A stretch of 35,868 bases of DNA from a virus (taxonomy: Duplodnaviria; Heunggongvirae; Uroviricota; Caudoviricetes): the IMG/VR virus record IMGVR_UViG_2609460346_000008; one strand, written 5' to 3'. Below are positions 1,734 through 13,587 of this stretch, in pieces. The stretch's first letter is position 1. Every line of letters begins with the position of its first letter. The notes beneath the pieces were generated by a model. The model had not been told where the DNA came from. It ran no database searches and saw only the letters and a list, made by a program, of their open reading frames with translations. The position numbers and the translations under genes are program-made.

Positions 1734-1940
1734 TCATCTCCTTTTTTTCAGTCTGTCGGCAACAATGTCGGTTGCAGCTGGCAGGGTGACTGGCCAGAAC
1801 AACATGACGGCGGTCATGTACAGGATGTAATGCGCGGTGTCGTAGTGCCTGCCATAGCCCAGGGAACGATGAAGTCTTGCGCTGCATGATCCTGCGTACA
1901 TATACCAGAAAAGAAAACAGACAATGGTTTCAGTAGTCAT
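1734..1940 (-). CDS. Small hydrophobic membrane protein (68 aa)
   Basis: Internal ATG at 1940 (MTTETIVCFLFWYMY...) with GGGAGG RBS 9 nt upstream; hydrophobic; follows the stop of the upstream gene by 7 nt. Confidence 0.45.
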   Translation of the reverse strand: MTTETIVCFLFWYMYAGSCSARLHRSLGYGRHYDTAHYILYMTAVMLFWPVTLPAATDIVADRLKKRR

Positions 1941-2160
1941 TCTGAATACCTCCCCATTCGATATGAATATTACGGGCAGCAATGACAGGGTCGTTATTCC
2001 ACCATGCACCTGACATGTATTTTTCAACCTGTTCGCGTCCGGCAATAACACCAATTGTGATCCCCGGCCTGACGTTCTTAAAAAAGGCGCGGGCAAAAAG
2101 GTATCTGGCAGATATTCGGCAGGCTTTTAATTTCCGGCTGTTACCTGATAGCGTAATCAT
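1930..2160 (-). CDS. Hypothetical protein (76 aa)
   Basis: ATG at 2160 overlaps the stop of the upstream gene (ATGA coupling); GGAGG RBS 5 nt upstream. Confidence 0.45.
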   Translation of the reverse strand: MITLSGNSRKLKACRISARYLFARAFFKNVRPGITIGVIAGREQVEKYMSGAWWNNDPVIAARNIHIEWGGIQNDY

Positions 2161-2840
2161 CTGGCCTCCAGTTTCTGTTGTTCCTGCCCACTGACCGGGC
2201 GGTGCAGTCTGACGTTCTGCCCTTCACGAAACCCCGCATAGCGCGAGGCGTCGCCATTGCGGCTTCTTCCCGGTTTACGCGCCCTGGTGGTTTGCGTTTG
2301 CGGGTATTTATGTTCCAGCCACTGTTGCATCAGTTCACGCTCATCATCGGTCAGGGCAAAGGACTGTATTTCACTGATAACGGCCAGTACCCAGCCTTCA
2401 GCAAACTGGTCTCCACGGCTGGTACGGGTGGCGTTTTTTATTCTTTTGTTCTGTGCGCTGATATACTGCTGACGCGCCTTTTTCAGCTGGCGGACCAGCA
2501 CTTCCCAGGTGTACGCAGCCAGTGCCGCTCGTTCCCGGTTACCGTAGAACCCCACAGACGGATGCGTGCCGGGGTGAATGATGGAGTTAACACCAAATGC
2601 CTCGCGGATGATGTTCATCAGGCCCAGCATGTAGCGCGGTGGACGGAGACTGCCTGTCGGCCAGTAATGACTGATGGTTTCATCAATATCACTCATAGCA
2701 ATGTCGGAATGTGTGATGCCGTGAACATCCATCAGTTTACGGGCTCGGCGCAGTGCCAGAGCGGCCTCGTGCGGGTTGCCGGATGCGGCCAGCGCCAGCA
2801 ACTTTTTCAGTTTCTCAATGTGTTTATTCTGGTCTGTCAT
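2157..2840 (-). CDS. DUF2786-like early-region protein (Mu semi-essential region type)
   Basis: Start at the ATG at 2840 (MTDQNKHIEKLKKLLALAASGNPHEAALALRRARKLM...), 3 nt after the upstream gene's stop; N-terminal motif resembles the DUF2786 family common in Mu-like prophages. Confidence 0.55.
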   Translation of the reverse strand: MTDQNKHIEKLKKLLALAASGNPHEAALALRRARKLMDVHGITHSDIAMSDIDETISHYWPTGSLRPPRYMLGLMNIIREAFGVNSIIHPGTHPSVGFYGNRERAALAAYTWEVLVRQLKKARQQYISAQNKRIKNATRTSRGDQFAEGWVLAVISEIQSFALTDDERELMQQWLEHKYPQTQTTRARKPGRSRNGDASRYAGFREGQNVRLHRPVSGQEQQKLEAR

Positions 2841-3052
2841 TGTTCTGTATCTCCGGTATTTTTCTGCCGTTTCCATGCCCGGACAGCGTCGGACAGCTCT
2901 TTCAGGCTGTATGCTGCTTTAAGCTTTTCCCATAACCACTGTGTTGTTATGTGCATCAGCAGGGCAGCCAGGGCTGCCCCCGCACTGAGGCATGTCGCCA
3001 GGCCAGTAAGAATCAGTGTCCATGCGGTGATTTCCCTGAGTATGTCAGCCAT
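2837..3052 (-). CDS. Small membrane protein (71 aa)
   Basis: GGGAGG RBS 8 nt upstream of the ATG at 3052; one hydrophobic helix (WTLILTGLATCLSAGAALAALLM). Confidence 0.5.
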   Translation of the reverse strand: MADILREITAWTLILTGLATCLSAGAALAALLMHITTQWLWEKLKAAYSLKELSDAVRAWKRQKNTGDTEQ

Positions 3053-3066
3053 TGAATGCCTCCCGG

Positions 3067-3363
3067 TTACTCGTTCGTGTAAATCACGCCCAGTCGTGCA
3101 GCCAGACGTTCCAGTTTTTTCTGTTTGTGGAAGTCAATCAGCCGGTCCATCCCCTGAAGGCGCAGTTGCTCTGTCATGATTTCCACGTCTGCCAGCTCTG
3201 CCGCGAGGTCACTTTCGCTGCCCTGTCCGTTCAGATTGCGGGCAGCACTGGCCGCCAGTTCAGCGGCCTCTTCTGTCAGTTTCAGGGCCTGTGCGTCCGG
3301 CCCGAAACGCTGCAGGGCCAGACGGTAGAGGGCGGTGCGGGTGAGTTCGGTGTTTCGTGTCAT
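3067..3363 (-). CDS. MazG-like nucleotide pyrophosphohydrolase domain protein (98 aa)
   Basis: Paired acidic helices LTEEAAELAASAA and LAAELADVEIMTEQL match the EExxE...ExxD pattern of all-alpha NTP-PPase (MazG/HisE-like) proteins; RBS GAGGG 7 nt upstream. Confidence 0.5.
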   Translation of the reverse strand: MTRNTELTRTALYRLALQRFGPDAQALKLTEEAAELAASAARNLNGQGSESDLAAELADVEIMTEQLRLQGMDRLIDFHKQKKLERLAARLGVIYTNE

Positions 3364-9281: not shown

Positions 9282-9333
9282 CTGCATACCTCTTTTGCGA
9301 TATGTGATAACCTTTTACAAAGACTCAAAATAT

Positions 9334-9522
9334 TTAGGCCGCCTGAGCTGTTGATTTCAGTCCCAACTTCACGGCGATTTCATGGGATTTACCGTAACGG
9401 GCTTTGGTCTGCCCGTTGAGAACGCGGTATACCTCATTGCGGTTGTAGCCGTTTTCTTCTGCCCAGCGGGTGAAAGTGATCCCGCGCTGGCGGAAGAGAG
9501 CTTTGACTTGTTCTGCAGTCAT
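9334..9522 (-). CDS. Ner/Cro-like small DNA-binding regulator (first gene of the early operon)
   Basis: 62 aa, HTH-like; AAGGAG RBS 8 nt upstream; divergent from the repressor gene across an operator-containing intergenic region, as for Mu ner versus c. Confidence 0.55.
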   Translation of the reverse strand: MTAEQVKALFRQRGITFTRWAEENGYNRNEVYRVLNGQTKARYGKSHEIAVKLGLKSTAQAA

Positions 9523-9574
9523 CGTTGTCTCCTTTGTTGATGCAATGATGTTTGCCTTATATGTGTTAGATTAT

Positions 9575-9592
9575 TGCTCATAATTATGAGCA
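9575..9592. promoter_or_regulatory. Operator: 18-bp perfect palindrome TGCTCATAATTATGAGCA between ner and the repressor gene
   Basis: Perfect dyad read from sequence; a third half-site copy TTATGAGCA at 9614-9622 overlaps the repressor start codon. Confidence 0.55.
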
Positions 9593-9615
9593 TATCAAGA
9601 TAGAGATTCACTTTT

Positions 9616-9972
9616 ATGAGCAAAGATATAGGAGAGCGCGTTATTTCTGTGAGGAAGAAAGCAGGGTTGAACCAGAGAGAATTTGCAGCTCGTTTAGGTA
9701 TTTCTAATGGTGGTATCAGTCAGATTGAAAATGGAAAGGCGATGCCTGGAGGGGAGTTTCTGTTAAAGATGCATCAAGAGTTTAATGTTGATGTAAATTG
9801 GTTGCTCACTGGAATGAGCACAGATGGTATGACTAGAAACCAGAATCAAATTTCCCCAGAAAAACAAAAACTAATAGATACTTTTGACGACATGACACCA
9901 GACCAACAACGCTCATTTCTTGAGATTGGGCGATTCTATACTCAGCCAAAACCAGGAAAAATCGCAGGCTGA
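9616..9972 (+). CDS. Phage repressor, XRE-family HTH (c-like immunity repressor)
   Basis: 118 aa; HTH QREFAARLGISNGGISQIENGK near the N-terminus; no S24 peptidase domain; gene visibly A+T-rich relative to neighbours; weak RBS. Confidence 0.8.
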   Translation: MSKDIGERVISVRKKAGLNQREFAARLGISNGGISQIENGKAMPGGEFLLKMHQEFNVDVNWLLTGMSTDGMTRNQNQISPEKQKLIDTFDDMTPDQQRSFLEIGRFYTQPKPGKIAG

Positions 9973-10057
9973 TACTGACCCGGACACAAAGGACAGGTGG
10001 TTGATCTGGATGCTTTCAGAAAACATCGCCAGTGACATAGTGGAAGTTGTTTGGTTT

Positions 10058-10090
10058 ACCGGAAAGCATTGTGCTTTCCGGTTTTGTTTC
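10058..10090. terminator. Bidirectional rho-independent terminator between the repressor and methyltransferase genes
   Basis: 10-bp perfect stem ACCGGAAAGC/GCTTTCCGGT, 5-nt loop, T-rich tracts on both sides (ttggttt ... tttgtttc). Confidence 0.7.
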
Positions 10091-10853
10091 AGAAGTTGCA
10101 GATTAGCAGTTCACGGCGCGGCGTGGGTTTACCCGCCAGACTGTAGTTGATATTCACTGTCTGTATGTTCAGTCCAGTGAACACCTCGCGCATCTGCGGG
10201 ATGTCGTTCACCGAAATTATCATTTTTCCTCTGATGCACCGGGCCAGCTCTGCCAGCCGCGAGTAGTTCCCTTCAGGAAAATCCACACCATAGCCTTCCG
10301 TACCCAGGTACGGTGGGTCGCAGTAGAACAGCGTGTGCGGACGATCATAACGCTCAATGCACTGTTGCCAGTCCATGTGTTCTATGACTGTTCTGGAAAG
10401 CCGCAGGTGTGCCGCTGACAGTTCTTCTTCAATACGCAGCAGGTTGAAGCGTGGCGGGGATGTGGTGGAGGTACCGAAGCTGTGCTCTGCCACCTTGCCG
10501 CCAAACGCCTGCTTCTGAAGGTAGTAGAACCGTGCCGCACGCTGGATATCCGTCAGTGTTTCTTCCGGGGTGATCTGCAGCCATTTGTAGATCTGACGGC
10601 TGACCAGCGCCCATTTGAACTGGCGGACAAATTCTTCCAGGTGATGCTTTACCACCCGGTACAGATTCACCAGTTCACCGTTGATATCATTGATGACTTC
10701 GATCTTGCCGGGTGTCTTAAGAAAATAGAGCGCTGCTGCCCCACAAAACGGCTCCACATAACATTCATGCGCCGGAAACAGCGGCAGAATGTGTTTTGCA
10801 AGGCGGCGTTTGCCACCAATCCACGGCACGATGGGTAATGTCTGCATTTTCAT
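10089..10853 (-). CDS. dam: DNA N6-adenine methyltransferase, Dam (D12) class; orphan (no nuclease partner seen)
   Basis: Motif I FCGAAAL and motif IV DPPY (FYCDPPYLG); N-terminus PIVPWIGGKRRLA typical of the Dam family; start placed at the internal ATG at 10853 (MKMQTL...); the track ORF extends to 10943. Confidence 0.85.
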   Translation of the reverse strand: MKMQTLPIVPWIGGKRRLAKHILPLFPAHECYVEPFCGAAALYFLKTPGKIEVINDINGELVNLYRVVKHHLEEFVRQFKWALVSRQIYKWLQITPEETLTDIQRAARFYYLQKQAFGGKVAEHSFGTSTTSPPRFNLLRIEEELSAAHLRLSRTVIEHMDWQQCIERYDRPHTLFYCDPPYLGTEGYGVDFPEGNYSRLAELARCIRGKMIISVNDIPQMREVFTGLNIQTVNINYSLAGKPTPRRELLICNF

Positions 10854-10957
10854 AATCTGTAAGCCTTTTACAATTATTAAAAAATATGGCAGTCTGGTCA
10901 GGTCTCGCGAGACTGACTGAACCTTGGTCGGCTCACAGCGCATTCCTGTGGGGCGAT

Positions 10958-10989
10958 GACCAGCCCGGCTTTCGGGTGCCGGGCTGGTC
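10958..10989. terminator. Strong hairpin (12-bp perfect stem GACCAGCCCGGC/GCCGGGCTGGTC, 8-nt loop), plus-strand terminator-like
   Basis: Read from sequence; followed on the plus strand by gTTCTTTCat. Lies in the non-coding gap between dam and the 71-aa ORF. Confidence 0.45.
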
Positions 10990-11043
10990 GTTCTTTCATG
11001 ATGCGGCAGGGATGGCGGGATTTCTGTTAATGTGGTTTAGGGA

Positions 11044-11259
11044 TTATCCGGGGCGATTTTCTGACCTTATCCGGTCCAGGGCATAAGTAATACCTTCTGC
11101 AAAAACAGAAGTATCAAACTGCTTTTGTATTCCCTGAAAATGAAAAGCGGCACGACAGACACTCAGTTCTCCGCGATGTAACCGGATAATATCTTCCAGA
11201 ACATTGTTCACTGCTTCAGCACGGCGCTGATGTTCTGTTAACGTTAATCGGGGATTCAT
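11044..11259 (-). CDS. Hypothetical protein (71 aa)
   Basis: AAGGAG RBS 7 nt upstream of the ATG at 11259, but the start codon overlaps the start of the opposite-strand ORF; one of the two may be spurious. Confidence 0.35.
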   Translation of the reverse strand: MNPRLTLTEHQRRAEAVNNVLEDIIRLHRGELSVCRAAFHFQGIQKQFDTSVFAEGITYALDRIRSENRPG

Positions 11260-11260
11260 G

Positions 11261-11662
11261 ATGCACTCCTTAAATGATGATTTTTATGCACTCACCGGCA
11301 AAATATTCTGCCGATTACTGAACACGCATCCGGCACCTCAGGTTTTGATTTATTCTGGTTTTTTCGATATTCCGGACCAGGTTGATCACGACCAGAAAAA
11401 GTGCCGGTATTTTATTGATACGCTGATATGGCTTCGGGATAACAGCTATATTCGTTACTCTCAGTTGCTGGCTGTGGGAGCGGCTGATGTCGTCCTCACG
11501 GAAAAAACGCTCCGTCTGCTCAATGCCACGCCGACCCTTCTGCAGCCCCGGCCCGCACCATTTAAAGAGTCACTTCTGGATGCAGTAAAAACCGGTGAAA
11601 ATGCAGTCATCGCTGAACGCGTATCCCGGATTATGAGTTACGTGTTTAATGAACGTAAGTGA
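11261..11662 (+). CDS. Hypothetical protein (133 aa), convergent with the P-loop gene
   Basis: Open frame with coding-like codon usage; GGGGA 6 nt upstream of the ATG at 11261; 3' end overlaps the P-loop gene's 3' end by 25 bp. No family recognised. Confidence 0.4.
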   Translation: MHSLNDDFYALTGKIFCRLLNTHPAPQVLIYSGFFDIPDQVDHDQKKCRYFIDTLIWLRDNSYIRYSQLLAVGAADVVLTEKTLRLLNATPTLLQPRPAPFKESLLDAVKTGENAVIAERVSRIMSYVFNERK

Positions 11663-12366
11663 GGTTTATCCGCTGTCTGCATAATCCCGATAGCCAGTGC
11701 GAGGGGAAGTAATTCCGGGGAAGTTCTTTCAAACAGCGATTCCCATTCTCCTCTCGCCATCACTCTGTCCAGCCCGCCCTCCAGTTGCATTTCAGCAATC
11801 TTCCTGATTTCCCGGAACAACGCCGCTTTGATCTCTTCATGCTCAGCTTTATTTTCCGGTGTCAGAAGGTATTCGTCGAAGAACCGGGGAGGCTGGTTAA
11901 TCGGGATGTGTTCCTGTTTGCCGTACTTCGGAGACGAACAACATTCTGTTGGCTGACCGGTGAGTTTACGTAACTCCTTCATGAGCAGCTCCTGATCGTA
12001 AACTGTCATCAGTGCCGCAATGGTGGCATGCAGTGCATCGGGCAGTATCCAGGGTTGCCGGCCCGTGGGGCATATAACATCCAGCAGCTCATTCCTCCGA
12101 CAGATACGCTCCTCGCCGTATGACAACAGGCCCTGTCCCGTGTATTCCTCCAGCCTGATCACTGTGCCAGCCCGTGGTTTCTGCCATGTGCTCAGATCAT
12201 CCCCACTCATACGGCGCTCACCGTCCACGTCTGCGGCGTCGACAATGACGCTGTTTCCGAATTCCTGTTTCACCACTTCCTCTATCCGCGCCAATATGTA
12301 ACTTTTACCGCTGCCCACAGGACCGGACACGGTGACAGTGATGACCGGATTCAGTGTCTGCGTCAT
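11638..12366 (-). CDS. P-loop NTPase-like protein (242 aa) with uncharacterised C-terminal domain
   Basis: Walker A GPVGSGKS near the N-terminus (residues about 15-22); strong RBS GAGGAGA 7-8 nt upstream of the ATG at 12366; divergent from the lysis cassette; C-terminal about 160 aa unrecognised. Confidence 0.65.
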   Translation of the reverse strand: MTQTLNPVITVTVSGPVGSGKSYILARIEEVVKQEFGNSVIVDAADVDGERRMSGDDLSTWQKPRAGTVIRLEEYTGQGLLSYGEERICRRNELLDVICPTGRQPWILPDALHATIAALMTVYDQELLMKELRKLTGQPTECCSSPKYGKQEHIPINQPPRFFDEYLLTPENKAEHEEIKAALFREIRKIAEMQLEGGLDRVMARGEWESLFERTSPELLPLALAIGIMQTADKPHLRSLNT

Positions 12367-12428
12367 ATCGTATTCTCCTCTGTGAATAATTCATCGTTTA
12401 TCCTGCACATCCCGTATCCCCGGCTCTC

Positions 12429-12447
12429 TTAACGCGCTTTAAAATCC
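12429..12447 (+). promoter_or_regulatory. Putative late promoter element P1 (ttaacgcgcTTTAAAATCc) upstream of the lysis/head operon
   Basis: One of four copies of TTAA-N5-TTTAAWATC; its 3' end lies 49 nt upstream of the ATG at 12497. Confidence 0.4.
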
Positions 12448-12496
12448 TTCGCGCCCTGTATTTGTGATGCTGTCTCCACCAGACAAGGAGACACAC

Positions 12497-12847
12497 ATGA
12501 AAAACCTGAAAAAATTCATTCCCCCTGTTAAAAAACCTCGCCTCAGCGGCTGGCTGCTGACCTCAGTGCTGTTGCTGGGCACCATCGCTCTGGTCTCGCC
12601 ACAGCAGTTGCCTGTTGTGATCTACAAGCTGGCACTCATCACGCTGGCAGCAGTGCTGGGTTACTGGCTTGACCGTTCGCTCTTCCCCAAAGCCCGTCCC
12701 GGTCAGTACCTGAAACATGACGACAGGCTGATGGCTGATGGGCGTTTCCCGGTACAGACCGGCCTTCACCTGGTGTTTTCTGCTGCGTTAATCCGCCGTG
12801 CACTGATTGTTGCAGCGGTCTGTCTGGCTGTTGCGATGGGGCTTTAA
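12497..12847 (+). CDS. Membrane protein at the head of the lysis cassette (holin/antiholin candidate)
   Basis: Start ATG at 12497 with AAGGAG 6 nt upstream (track ORF starts at 12464); three predicted hydrophobic helices; immediately precedes the lytic transglycosylase. C-terminus is hydrophobic, which is atypical for a classical holin. Confidence 0.5.
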   Translation: MKNLKKFIPPVKKPRLSGWLLTSVLLLGTIALVSPQQLPVVIYKLALITLAAVLGYWLDRSLFPKARPGQYLKHDDRLMADGRFPVQTGLHLVFSAALIRRALIVAAVCLAVAMGL

Positions 12848-12849
12848 TC

Positions 12850-13587
12850 ATGAACTGGCCGCAGATCACCTGGATTGTATGCATGTCCCTGAAACTGGCT
12901 TTCGAAGCCTTTAGGGTCTTCATCAGAACCGAACGCCTGTCAGTCCGCGCCGGGACCTTTCTGGTTCATATGGCACGGGTATTCTTTGTCGCAATGTTGC
13001 TCTGGTGTGGCGGCTTCTTCAGTCAGGCCCGCGCAGCGCAGCCTCCGCAGGCAGCGCTGCAGTATCGCGATGATGTGATCCGTAATGCCCGGCTTGAATG
13101 GGGACTGTCTGCGCCGGTGGCTGATTTCGCTGCGCAACTGCATCAGGAAAGCGGCTGGCGACCTGATGCGATCTCGCCGGTTGGCGCTCAGGGACTGGCG
13201 CAGTTCATGCCCGCCACCGCCGACTGGATAAGTCAGTTGATGCCGGGGCTTAACAGCCGTGAGCCATTTAATCCGGCATGGGCCATCCGGGCGCTGGTCA
13301 GCTATGACCGCTGGCTGTGGCAGCGCGTCAGCGCCGCCAGTGACTGCGAGCGTATGGCCATGACACTGTCGGGCTATAACGGTGGTCTGGGCTGGGTACA
13401 GCGGGACAGGCGGCTTGCATCACAAAAAGGGCTGGACAGCACCCGCTGGTTTGGTCATGTCGCCACGGTGAATGCCGGACGCAGCACTGCCAGCTGGCGG
13501 GAGAACCGTCATTATCCCCAGCGCATCCTGTTCACGCTGGCCCCGCGTTATCTCTCATGGGGAGGGGCAAGCTGTGTGGGTACGTAA
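12850..13587 (+). CDS. Endolysin: soluble lytic transglycosylase (SLT domain), probably membrane-tethered or secreted (SAR/signal-type)
   Basis: SLT motif ...QESGWRPDAISPVGAQGLAQFMP...; weakly hydrophobic Gly/Ala-rich segment MARVFFVAMLLWCGGFFSQARAA ahead of the catalytic domain; alternative start at the ATG at 12970. Confidence 0.8.
   Translation: MNWPQITWIVCMSLKLAFEAFRVFIRTERLSVRAGTFLVHMARVFFVAMLLWCGGFFSQARAAQPPQAALQYRDDVIRNARLEWGLSAPVADFAAQLHQESGWRPDAISPVGAQGLAQFMPATADWISQLMPGLNSREPFNPAWAIRALVSYDRWLWQRVSAASDCERMAMTLSGYNGGLGWVQRDRRLASQKGLDSTRWFGHVATVNAGRSTASWRENRHYPQRILFTLAPRYLSWGGASCVGT

Follow-up and report, generated by a model that had tools for sequence, protein, structure and literature searches.

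Separable accessory genes between the repressor and the lysis genes of a BcepMu-like prophage of Escherichia coli, among them a head-to-head gene pair that also occurs in P2-like phages

The DNA analysed here, called the window, is the viral record IMGVR_UViG_2609460346_000008 at its full length of 35,868 nucleotides; by its sequence it is a BcepMu-like (Bcepmuvirus) transposable prophage of Escherichia coli of the EC958 Phi2 type. The region between its repressor gene and its lysis genes is probably a composite accessory slot made of three separable units, namely an orphan dam gene, a two-gene cassette encoding proteins of 71 and 134 amino acids (aa) and a mosaic gene encoding 242 aa, rather than a single system, a judgement that includes the roles proposed for these units below. 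An earlier note on this DNA had described the block as one leftward module and the most plausible place for one undescribed system, which is contradicted by the separate occurrence of the parts in related prophages. The anatomy of the block, the separability and distribution of its parts and the lack of known homology were seen directly, and the low transcription of dam in the lysogen is known from a publication. The four open reading frames (ORFs) of that note do exist, at 10089-10943 (-), 11044-11259 (-), 11258-11662 and 11638-12366 (-), and so do its flanks, a CI/HTH_3-type repressor gene at 9616-9972 (+) and a holin/SLT lysis cassette from about 12497 (+). Uniform leftward transcription had to be abandoned, as the supposed 133-aa ORF encodes 134 aa on the + strand, antisense to its neighbours. 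The genes and domains of the slot are as follows.

10089..10853, - strand: orphan Dam-family (D12 class) N6-adenine DNA methyltransferase, 254 aa (PF02086, TIGR00571)
11044..11259, - strand: 71-aa gene, the 'small' partner (phrog_4490, E 2e-52)
11258..11662, + strand: 134-aa gene, the 'big' partner (phrog_2266, E 4e-43)
11638..12366, - strand: 242-aa mosaic protein (phrog_3787, full-length PHROG match), the first leftward gene
12142..12366, - strand: N-terminal mini P-loop domain of the mosaic protein, aa 1-75, delimited by its HMMER relatives
11641..11841, - strand: C-terminal 'DRVMARGEW...LLPLALAIG' module of the mosaic protein, about aa 176-242, a stand-alone gene in Serratia

Sequence comparison identifies the three non-Dam ORFs as real genes, because each has a full-length match to a PHROG family of unknown function, all three are annotated by RefSeq in hundreds of genomes, and the ratio of non-synonymous to synonymous substitution rates (dN/dS) of the big gene is 0.16 against its Serratia homologue. 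As in the earlier note, none of them could be matched to a family of known function: Pfam, NCBIfam and PADLOC scans of the three proteins and their homologues, up to an E-value of 10, gave nothing significant. The PADLOC check suggested in that note returned no significant defence-model match for the non-Dam proteins; in PADLOC-DB v2.0.0 the 71-aa and 134-aa proteins have no match at E<=1 and the 242-aa protein has only Walker-A-level matches (E>=0.002). Sequence and profile searches of the PDB with the non-Dam proteins gave Walker A matches for the N-domain of the 242-aa protein and none for the 134-aa family. Two general roles were considered and rejected, that of DNA-mimic anti-restriction proteins, as the non-Dam proteins are not strongly acidic, and that of membrane or superinfection-exclusion proteins, as no hydrophobic or transmembrane segment was found in them.

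What lies between repressor and holin promoter differs among relatives from E. coli, Klebsiella, Citrobacter, Salmonella and Serratia, in agreement with the accessory nature assigned to the slot in the earlier note. The comparison of related BcepMu-like prophages that it had called for revealed a short locus with conserved anchors, high turnover and at least six arrangements, and in these respects the slot is like the hotspots of Rousset et al. 2022. Some of the arrangements, designated by locus, are listed here.

L006: Dam only, with other cargo beside the repressor
L007 and L023: Dam, the 71-aa gene and a 247-aa mosaic gene; the 134-aa gene is internally deleted by 325 bp
L004: no Dam; a 158-aa P-loop gene remnant and two unrelated + strand genes
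L005: no Dam; DUF2441 cargo
Klebsiella KP12: Dam and a DUF2441 protein
L008 and L014 (Citrobacter): a 291-aa mosaic P-loop gene, an 86-aa ORF, an opposite-strand 113-aa ORF and Dam
L013 (Salmonella) and L085: the mosaic gene and then Dam directly, without small ORFs

P2-like phages, moreover, carry the small/big pair without any mosaic gene. The region is present in 636 of 5426 complete E. coli genomes, in 470 of these at a coverage of at least 80%, and the block from 9300 to 12900 is 99.2% identical to phage PhiKM (Bcepmuvirus). In EC958, the reference strain of sequence type 131 (ST131), the copy lies at 1.03 Mb beside transposase, ExeA-like, Gam and Mor genes.

Of the concrete leads that the slot offers, the conserved, CATG-overlapping divergent geometry of the cassette with its swapped small partners is the most interesting. 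The start codons of the 71-aa and 134-aa genes overlap in the palindrome CATG at 11257-11260, and the last 25 nt of the 134-aa gene overlap the 3' end of the 242-aa gene. The Shine-Dalgarno sequence of the small gene (AAGGAG, strong) lies within the first codons of the 134-aa gene and that of the big gene (GGGGA) within the small gene; as each ribosome-binding site is located inside the other gene, the 5' parts of the two transcripts would be mutually antisense. In BcepMu-like prophages of Serratia, which carry Dam (-), 73 aa (-), 139 aa (+), 89 aa (-) and holin (+) in this order, the big homologue is 52% identical and the layout is shared, with convergently overlapping 3' ends and with starts of the pair that abut or overlap in CATGATG (1 nt apart as called). 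Locus L083 has a 168-aa big and a 65-aa small homologue in head-to-head position and again a convergent overlap. Big homologues of 143 aa with 30-33% identity are found in the P2-like phages FSL SP-004, Midge and ST147-VIM1phi7.1, where they stand head-to-head with a 63-64-aa ORF via an overlapping CATG. In IMG/VR, 55 loci encode a big homologue (13 BcepMu-like, 42 P2-like), and every one of them shows the in-frame CATG together with a divergent small ORF. What is conserved across the two phage families is therefore the cassette geometry, as far as sequence tells, and not the partner sequence.

Of the 5426 complete E. coli genomes, 499 have the small gene and 492 the big one; about 7 have lost only the big gene, and none was seen that had lost only the small one. 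The small gene has a dN/dS of 0.3-0.7. The 134-aa protein is predicted to be all-helical, soluble and near-neutral. The name DUF2513, under which its source lists the Serratia homologue P0030, received no support, as neither the 134-aa protein nor P0030 matched this family even at E<=10.

In the P2-like loci the pair is situated between the portal gene and gpA in 42 of 42 cases, and it is this position that Rousset et al. 2022 (PMC9122126) defined as the old/tin hotspot of anti-phage genes; their Table S5A gives the P2-type small gene only as 'hypothetical'. The gpA-gpQ (old/tin) hotspot of P2 (PMC9122126) and the BcepMu slot are alike in that both hold a phrog_2266 gene with a divergent small partner and in that the BcepMu slot is also short, of high turnover and bounded by conserved anchors (repressor and holin). 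They differ in the phage family, which is the transposable BcepMu-like one here, and in the anchors themselves, and in the BcepMu slot none of the alternative cargos was recognised as a validated defence system. The suspicion of defence cargo voiced in the earlier note survives for the 134-aa family, which shares the P2-like anti-phage hotspot, and falls for the block as one defence system. By guilt by association, a defence reading is plausible for the cassette only.

The 242-aa protein, announced earlier as a P-loop protein with an unrecognised C-terminal domain, is indeed of this kind and has the Walker A motif GPVGSGKS at residues 15-22. An exhaustive HMMER search returned 58 matches, the distant relatives of which align mainly over the first ~75 residues, with the conserved order strand, GPxGxGKS, helix, strand, E/W/P loop, strand; G15, G20 and K21 do not vary across the aligned family, and some members have GKN instead of GKS. 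Towards the C-terminus the family members are put together from short modules in shuffled combinations, and in Serratia the module at the C-terminus of the window protein is found as a stand-alone 89-aa gene without any P-loop domain. Residues 8-48, which comprise a beta-strand, the GxxGxGKS loop, a helix and a second strand, align with the nucleotide-binding domains of ATP-binding cassette (ABC) proteins (E 2e-5) and with designed P-loop prototypes (PDB 6c2u and 9jix, E 1e-4), and the N-domain profile found in the PDB only the Walker-A strand-helix-strand of these two groups. Unlike ABC-type P-loop nucleoside triphosphatases, the protein has no ABC signature, Q-loop, H-loop or clear Walker B; its conserved domain measures ~75 aa and the remainder consists of unrelated shuffled modules. 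Pfam ABC_tran and AAA matches stay below their cut-offs and cover the Walker A region only. A complete nucleotide-binding domain of ~200 aa was not recovered either, since ~75 aa are widely conserved and the PDB profile matches end at position ~44. The name ABC ATPase, carried by truncated RefSeq homologues, was rejected because both the signature motif and a complete domain are missing.

The mosaic gene has a dN/dS of 0.24-0.57 and a strong Shine-Dalgarno sequence, and no recognisable sigma-70 promoter. In the search for related loci, a narrower N-domain alignment was used, which found 3 species genomes. The long repetitive proteins P0053 and P0079, one of them immunoglobulin-like, were discarded from the HMMER results as spurious repeat matches. 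Most E. coli homologues are 247 aa long owing to a 5-residue tandem repeat, IPVNT-IPVNQ (compared with P0007, L007, L023 and L024), and the window and EC958 proteins contain a single copy of it, IPINQ.

The presence of a Dam-class methyltransferase was confirmed by PF02086 (101 bits at a cut-off of 22, E 9e-29) and by TIGR00571 (116 bits, just above the cut-off of 114.85), and PADLOC assigns it to MTase_II (E 9e-112). Its translation contains the catalytic CDPPYLG (DPPY motif) and the N-terminal S-adenosylmethionine-binding EPFCGAAALYF, and it reaches only 66 bits with the E. coli Dam equivalog model NF008152, the cut-off of which is 441. The open frame does extend to 10943; in RefSeq and in all homologues, however, the start of the gene lies further in. 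Homologues begin with MK(M/E/D)Q and the frame reads MKMQTLP... from 10853, which is most likely the start, and this start leaves a 190-bp intergenic region upstream. The enzyme is an orphan, flanked by the repressor and the 71-aa ORF, and no nuclease was matched in the block by PADLOC or Pfam. A dN/dS of 0.08-0.15 indicates strong purifying selection, and dam is therefore functional somewhere, most plausibly in lytic growth. For its expression, a consensus scan offered one candidate, which is given here with the caution that sigma-70-like sites in the region are no more numerous than in shuffled sequence.

10873..10901, - strand: candidate sigma-70-like promoter for dam (CTGACC-17-AATAAT), 9/12 matches to the consensus

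Prophage Phi2 of EC958 carries one D12-class orphan methylase, M.EcoMIV or EC958_1101 (Forde et al. 2015, PMC4659465), which very probably is the Dam of the window: the window protein and WP_000783854.1 of EC958 Phi2 are 100% identical, and the PF02086 domain and the prophage context are shared. Transcription of M.EcoMIV was significantly below that of the host dam in mid-log LB culture, no methylation motif could be assigned to it, the enzyme was predicted to be inactive in the lysogen, and homologues above 65% identity had no determined target site (PMC4659465). For the Dam gene itself no difference from M.EcoMIV exists; in that study the EC958 enzyme showed no detectable activity in the lysogen. 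Dam does not behave like a lysogen-expressed defence cargo. The dam unit would be essentially off in the lysogen and be made during lytic growth, where it may methylate progeny DNA for anti-restriction or self-marking. At L083 and L084 (5435-5812), dam is broken up, the remaining pieces measuring 71 and 46 aa or 125 aa, with the big/small pair and the mosaic gene intact beside it, so Dam is dispensable in some lineages. With regard to composition, GATC is observed 99 times in the window against 174 expected under a Markov model (observed/expected 0.57), and CTAG is nearly missing, with 1 occurrence against 8 expected. GATC depletion has been published for mobile elements of EC958, and the deficit in the window agrees with it.

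Between the mosaic gene and the holin gene lies a divergent control region, in which a consensus scan of 12367-12500 found no sigma-70-like site. Its main feature is a quasi-palindrome.

12427..12444, no strand assigned: quasi-palindrome TTAACGCGCTTTAA (TTAACGCGCTTTAA at 12429-12442), conserved from E. coli to Serratia

Compared with its own reverse complement the element shows 3 mismatches; its centre is separated by ~70 bp from the ATG of the leftward gene (12366) and by ~62 bp from that of the holin gene (12497). Together with the downstream TTTGTGATGCTGTCTCCA it is kept across genera irrespective of the cargo (L002, L004-L006, L008, L013 and L016). The prophage encodes a Mor-family activator, as seen in the EC958 copy, and the quasi-palindrome may be a Mor-type activator site for both divergent promoters, in which case the leftward unit would be a lytic-phase transcript. 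The region upstream of the holin gene (12429-12496) contains an extended -10-like TGTGATGCT and looks like an activator-dependent late promoter. Past the 132-aa ORF 913-1311, at the extreme left of the prophage, lies a second late-promoter-like copy, TTAAAGCCCTTTCAAA (887-902, - strand), with 3 mismatches to 12429-12444; shuffled sequence gave 0.13 matches of this type on average.

We propose, tentatively and with low confidence, that the pair is an undescribed, mobile two-gene phage-conflict system working as a transcriptional antisense toggle, with an effector on in the lysogen and an antidote on when the prophage turns lytic, and that the neighbouring mosaic gene bears an autonomous, natural 75-aa minimal P-loop domain. 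In the composite reading itself, the cassette would be a mobile inter-phage conflict module in which the big protein may act as effector and the small gene as a phage-specific partner or antidote. The promoter of each gene would presumably be located within the other gene, like the ribosome-binding site. The small gene is co-directional with its neighbouring operon, which is the early gpA operon in P2-like phages and a leftward unit of putative lytic-phase expression in BcepMu-like ones, and lytic read-through would turn the small gene on and the big gene off. The mosaic gene would be co-activated with the lysis operon from the common conserved quasi-palindrome, and its product would act in lytic-phase host takeover or counter-defence. 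The non-Dam genes as a whole would be accessory cargo for phage-phage or phage-host conflict. In concept, the cassette so understood resembles BstA/aba, reportedly the self-immunity arrangement of the Salmonella prophage BTP1, in that next to a prophage-borne anti-phage effector there would be an element by which the lytic cycle of the prophage itself is spared. It differs in that BstA and the cassette have no sequence similarity and aba is a DNA element, not a protein gene, so that the analogy serves as a hypothesis only.

A number of observations weigh against the composite reading. The small families phrog_4490 and phrog_2454 show no homology (hhalign probability 0.1%), and the term 'partner' accordingly describes position and nothing else. 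No conserved sigma-70-like site was found upstream of either cassette gene in 9 loci, and no terminator is predicted between the rightward 134-aa gene and the lysis genes, which argues against strong expression of the 134-aa gene in the lysogen. Alternative slot cargos gave no clear PADLOC match, the nearest being a weak KwaA-like one (E 8e-5, L006) with the rest unclassified, and the slot is not demonstrably a defence hotspot. Structure prediction with AlphaFold2 was unusable for the 134-aa protein (an 8-sequence alignment, predicted local distance difference test (pLDDT) score of 53) and for the 242-aa protein alone (pLDDT 39); the Foldseek comparison that the earlier note had advised, run with the 134-aa model against PDB and BFVD, gave no match at E<=0.001 and best E-values of 2-4, which are meaningless. 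Within E. coli, the three non-Dam genes have dN/dS values of 0.3-2.4 on few changes, a weak constraint that is also compatible with decaying, functionless cargo. The identification of Dam with M.EcoMIV was drawn through the prophage, the Pfam domain and the genome position, not through an accession match. Finally, we infer the expression timing of the three non-Dam genes from sequence, and the antisense coupling and all molecular functions of the cassette and of the mosaic gene are likewise inferred.

Against the composite reading has to be set the possibility, itself an improbable one, that the pair is a prophage-expressed toxin-antitoxin or abortive-infection module directed at superinfecting phages and independent of the prophage's own lytic programme. 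The residence of all 42 P2-like loci in the gpA-portal anti-phage hotspot is in line with this, as are the small size of the two-gene unit, the exchange of its partner between phage families and the common strand of the big gene and the repressor; loss of the big gene with retention of the small one would be expected if the big gene is the toxic or effector part. However, divergent genes with overlapping start codons and no intergenic DNA are unlike co-transcribed type II toxin-antitoxin pairs, and together with the lack of any PADLOC or Pfam toxin/antitoxin family match they place the cassette outside type II. The promoter search, which gave none, and the missing terminator between the 134-aa gene and the lysis genes speak against it as well.

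It is still less likely that the three non-Dam genes serve lytic-phase counter-defence or host takeover (anti-restriction or anti-abortive infection), with the 134-aa protein as a regulator such as a helical DNA-binding protein. The first leftward gene is mosaic, modular and fast-evolving, it has a control region in common with the late promoter and no sigma-70 promoter, and the group adjoins the lytic-phase Dam, all of which would suit such a role. In addition, the annotators of phage Midge label the 143-aa homologue a putative transcriptional regulator on the basis of an HHpred match of 91% probability to T7 gp5.5/5.7. Neither the T7 gp5.5 nor the regulator resemblance of the family was reproduced here, however, as there was no PDB or Pfam match and the fold search was meaningless, and the proteins are not strongly acidic DNA mimics.

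That the four genes form one leftward accessory system, for instance a methylase-linked defence or anti-restriction operon dependent on the P-loop protein, is very unlikely. They are adjacent, between the immunity region and the late promoter, and Dam and the mosaic P-loop gene share the slot in E. coli, Citrobacter and Salmonella prophages. Nevertheless, the 134-aa gene is on the opposite strand, PADLOC matches the methylase only and Dam is weakly transcribed in the lysogen; the parts are separable, as seen in the Dam-only L006, the Dam-less L004 and L005, the pair alone in P2-like phages and the absence of a P-loop domain in Serratia, and this idea is thereby largely refuted. The suggestion that the 134-aa ORF is a chance antisense frame over a leftward operon with a long untranslated spacer, for which one might cite that 8 of its 9 differences from EC958 are non-synonymous and that it is deleted in some genomes, is refuted by 30-52% full-length identity with invariant motifs across Serratia and P2-like phages, the dN/dS against Serratia, the phrog_2266 match and its own Shine-Dalgarno sequence.

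Part of this was known already, in that Dam is catalogued as an orphan methylase and the cassette is widespread and uncharacterised; in a literature search, no mention of the slot genes was found in papers on BcepMu with E. coli or on PhiKM. The cassette is present in about 9% of complete E. coli genomes (499/5426), including the pandemic ST131 lineage represented by EC958, and members of the big-gene family, to which no function has been assigned, are often found in the P2 locus, the prophage defence hotspot that has been studied best. Should the pair prove to serve defence or self-immunity, it would contribute a system of unusual geometry, with divergent genes and no intergenic DNA, and the notion of hotspots would apply to transposable BcepMu-like prophages as well. 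The designed minimal P-loop proteins could have a natural equivalent in the mosaic mini-P-loop family. If all of this proves wrong, the slot holds ordinary fast-decaying phage cargo beside an already catalogued orphan methylase.

Two hairpins border the dam gene.

10058..10082, + strand: intrinsic terminator T1, 11-bp stem, then UUUUGUUU on the + strand only
10958..10989, + strand: hairpin T2, 12-bp perfect GC-rich stem, 8-nt loop, then GUUCUUUCA

T1 (-18.5 kcal/mol, z-score -4.8) is located downstream of the repressor gene and 7 nt past the dam stop codon on the other strand, and its - strand tail reads UAAACCAAA. The earlier note had called the structure at 10058 bidirectional, for which the sequence gives no support because the U-tract follows the hairpin on the + strand only; a bidirectional terminator was rejected, and T2 likewise has its U-tract on the + strand alone. 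T1 would terminate the repressor transcript and is not demonstrably bidirectional. T2, which had escaped that note, is the stronger of the two (-34.2 kcal/mol, z-score -6.1) and sits in the intergenic region upstream of dam. An equivalent hairpin with a T-run is found in Serratia at the matching position, T2 directly adjoins the late promoter in the Dam-only variant L006, and across loci it accompanies dam. T2 appears to be a rightward terminator-like insulator that separates dam from the cargo and the late promoter, and T1 and T2 on the + strand would together keep rightward transcription that leaves the repressor gene from reaching the lysis operon further downstream.

Some relatives showed peculiarities of their own. 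L002 (OM835952.1, 'Klebsiella phage KP12 clone KP12_2') is classified under Vequintavirinae as a 35-kb 'partial sequence'; its gene order (transposase, DUF3102, repressor, Dam, holin, Mu-type portal) is that of a BcepMu-like transposable phage, and the sequence probably belongs to a co-induced prophage rather than to KP12. In L006 (E. coli GIMC1410:G-002-25), the segment 237-2452 of this slot, beside the repressor, encodes a homologue of the nucleoid-associated protein NA37 (E 1e-80), followed by a 401-aa protein, the one with the weak PADLOC KwaA match, and the two may be a Kiwa-like pair. The Dam-less L004 and L005 carry at 1772-3216 a different, longer helix-turn-helix repressor of 153 aa, the stop codon of which overlaps the start of a 328-aa gene without family match, an overlap that suggests a repressor-partner operon and possibly an alternative immunity type.

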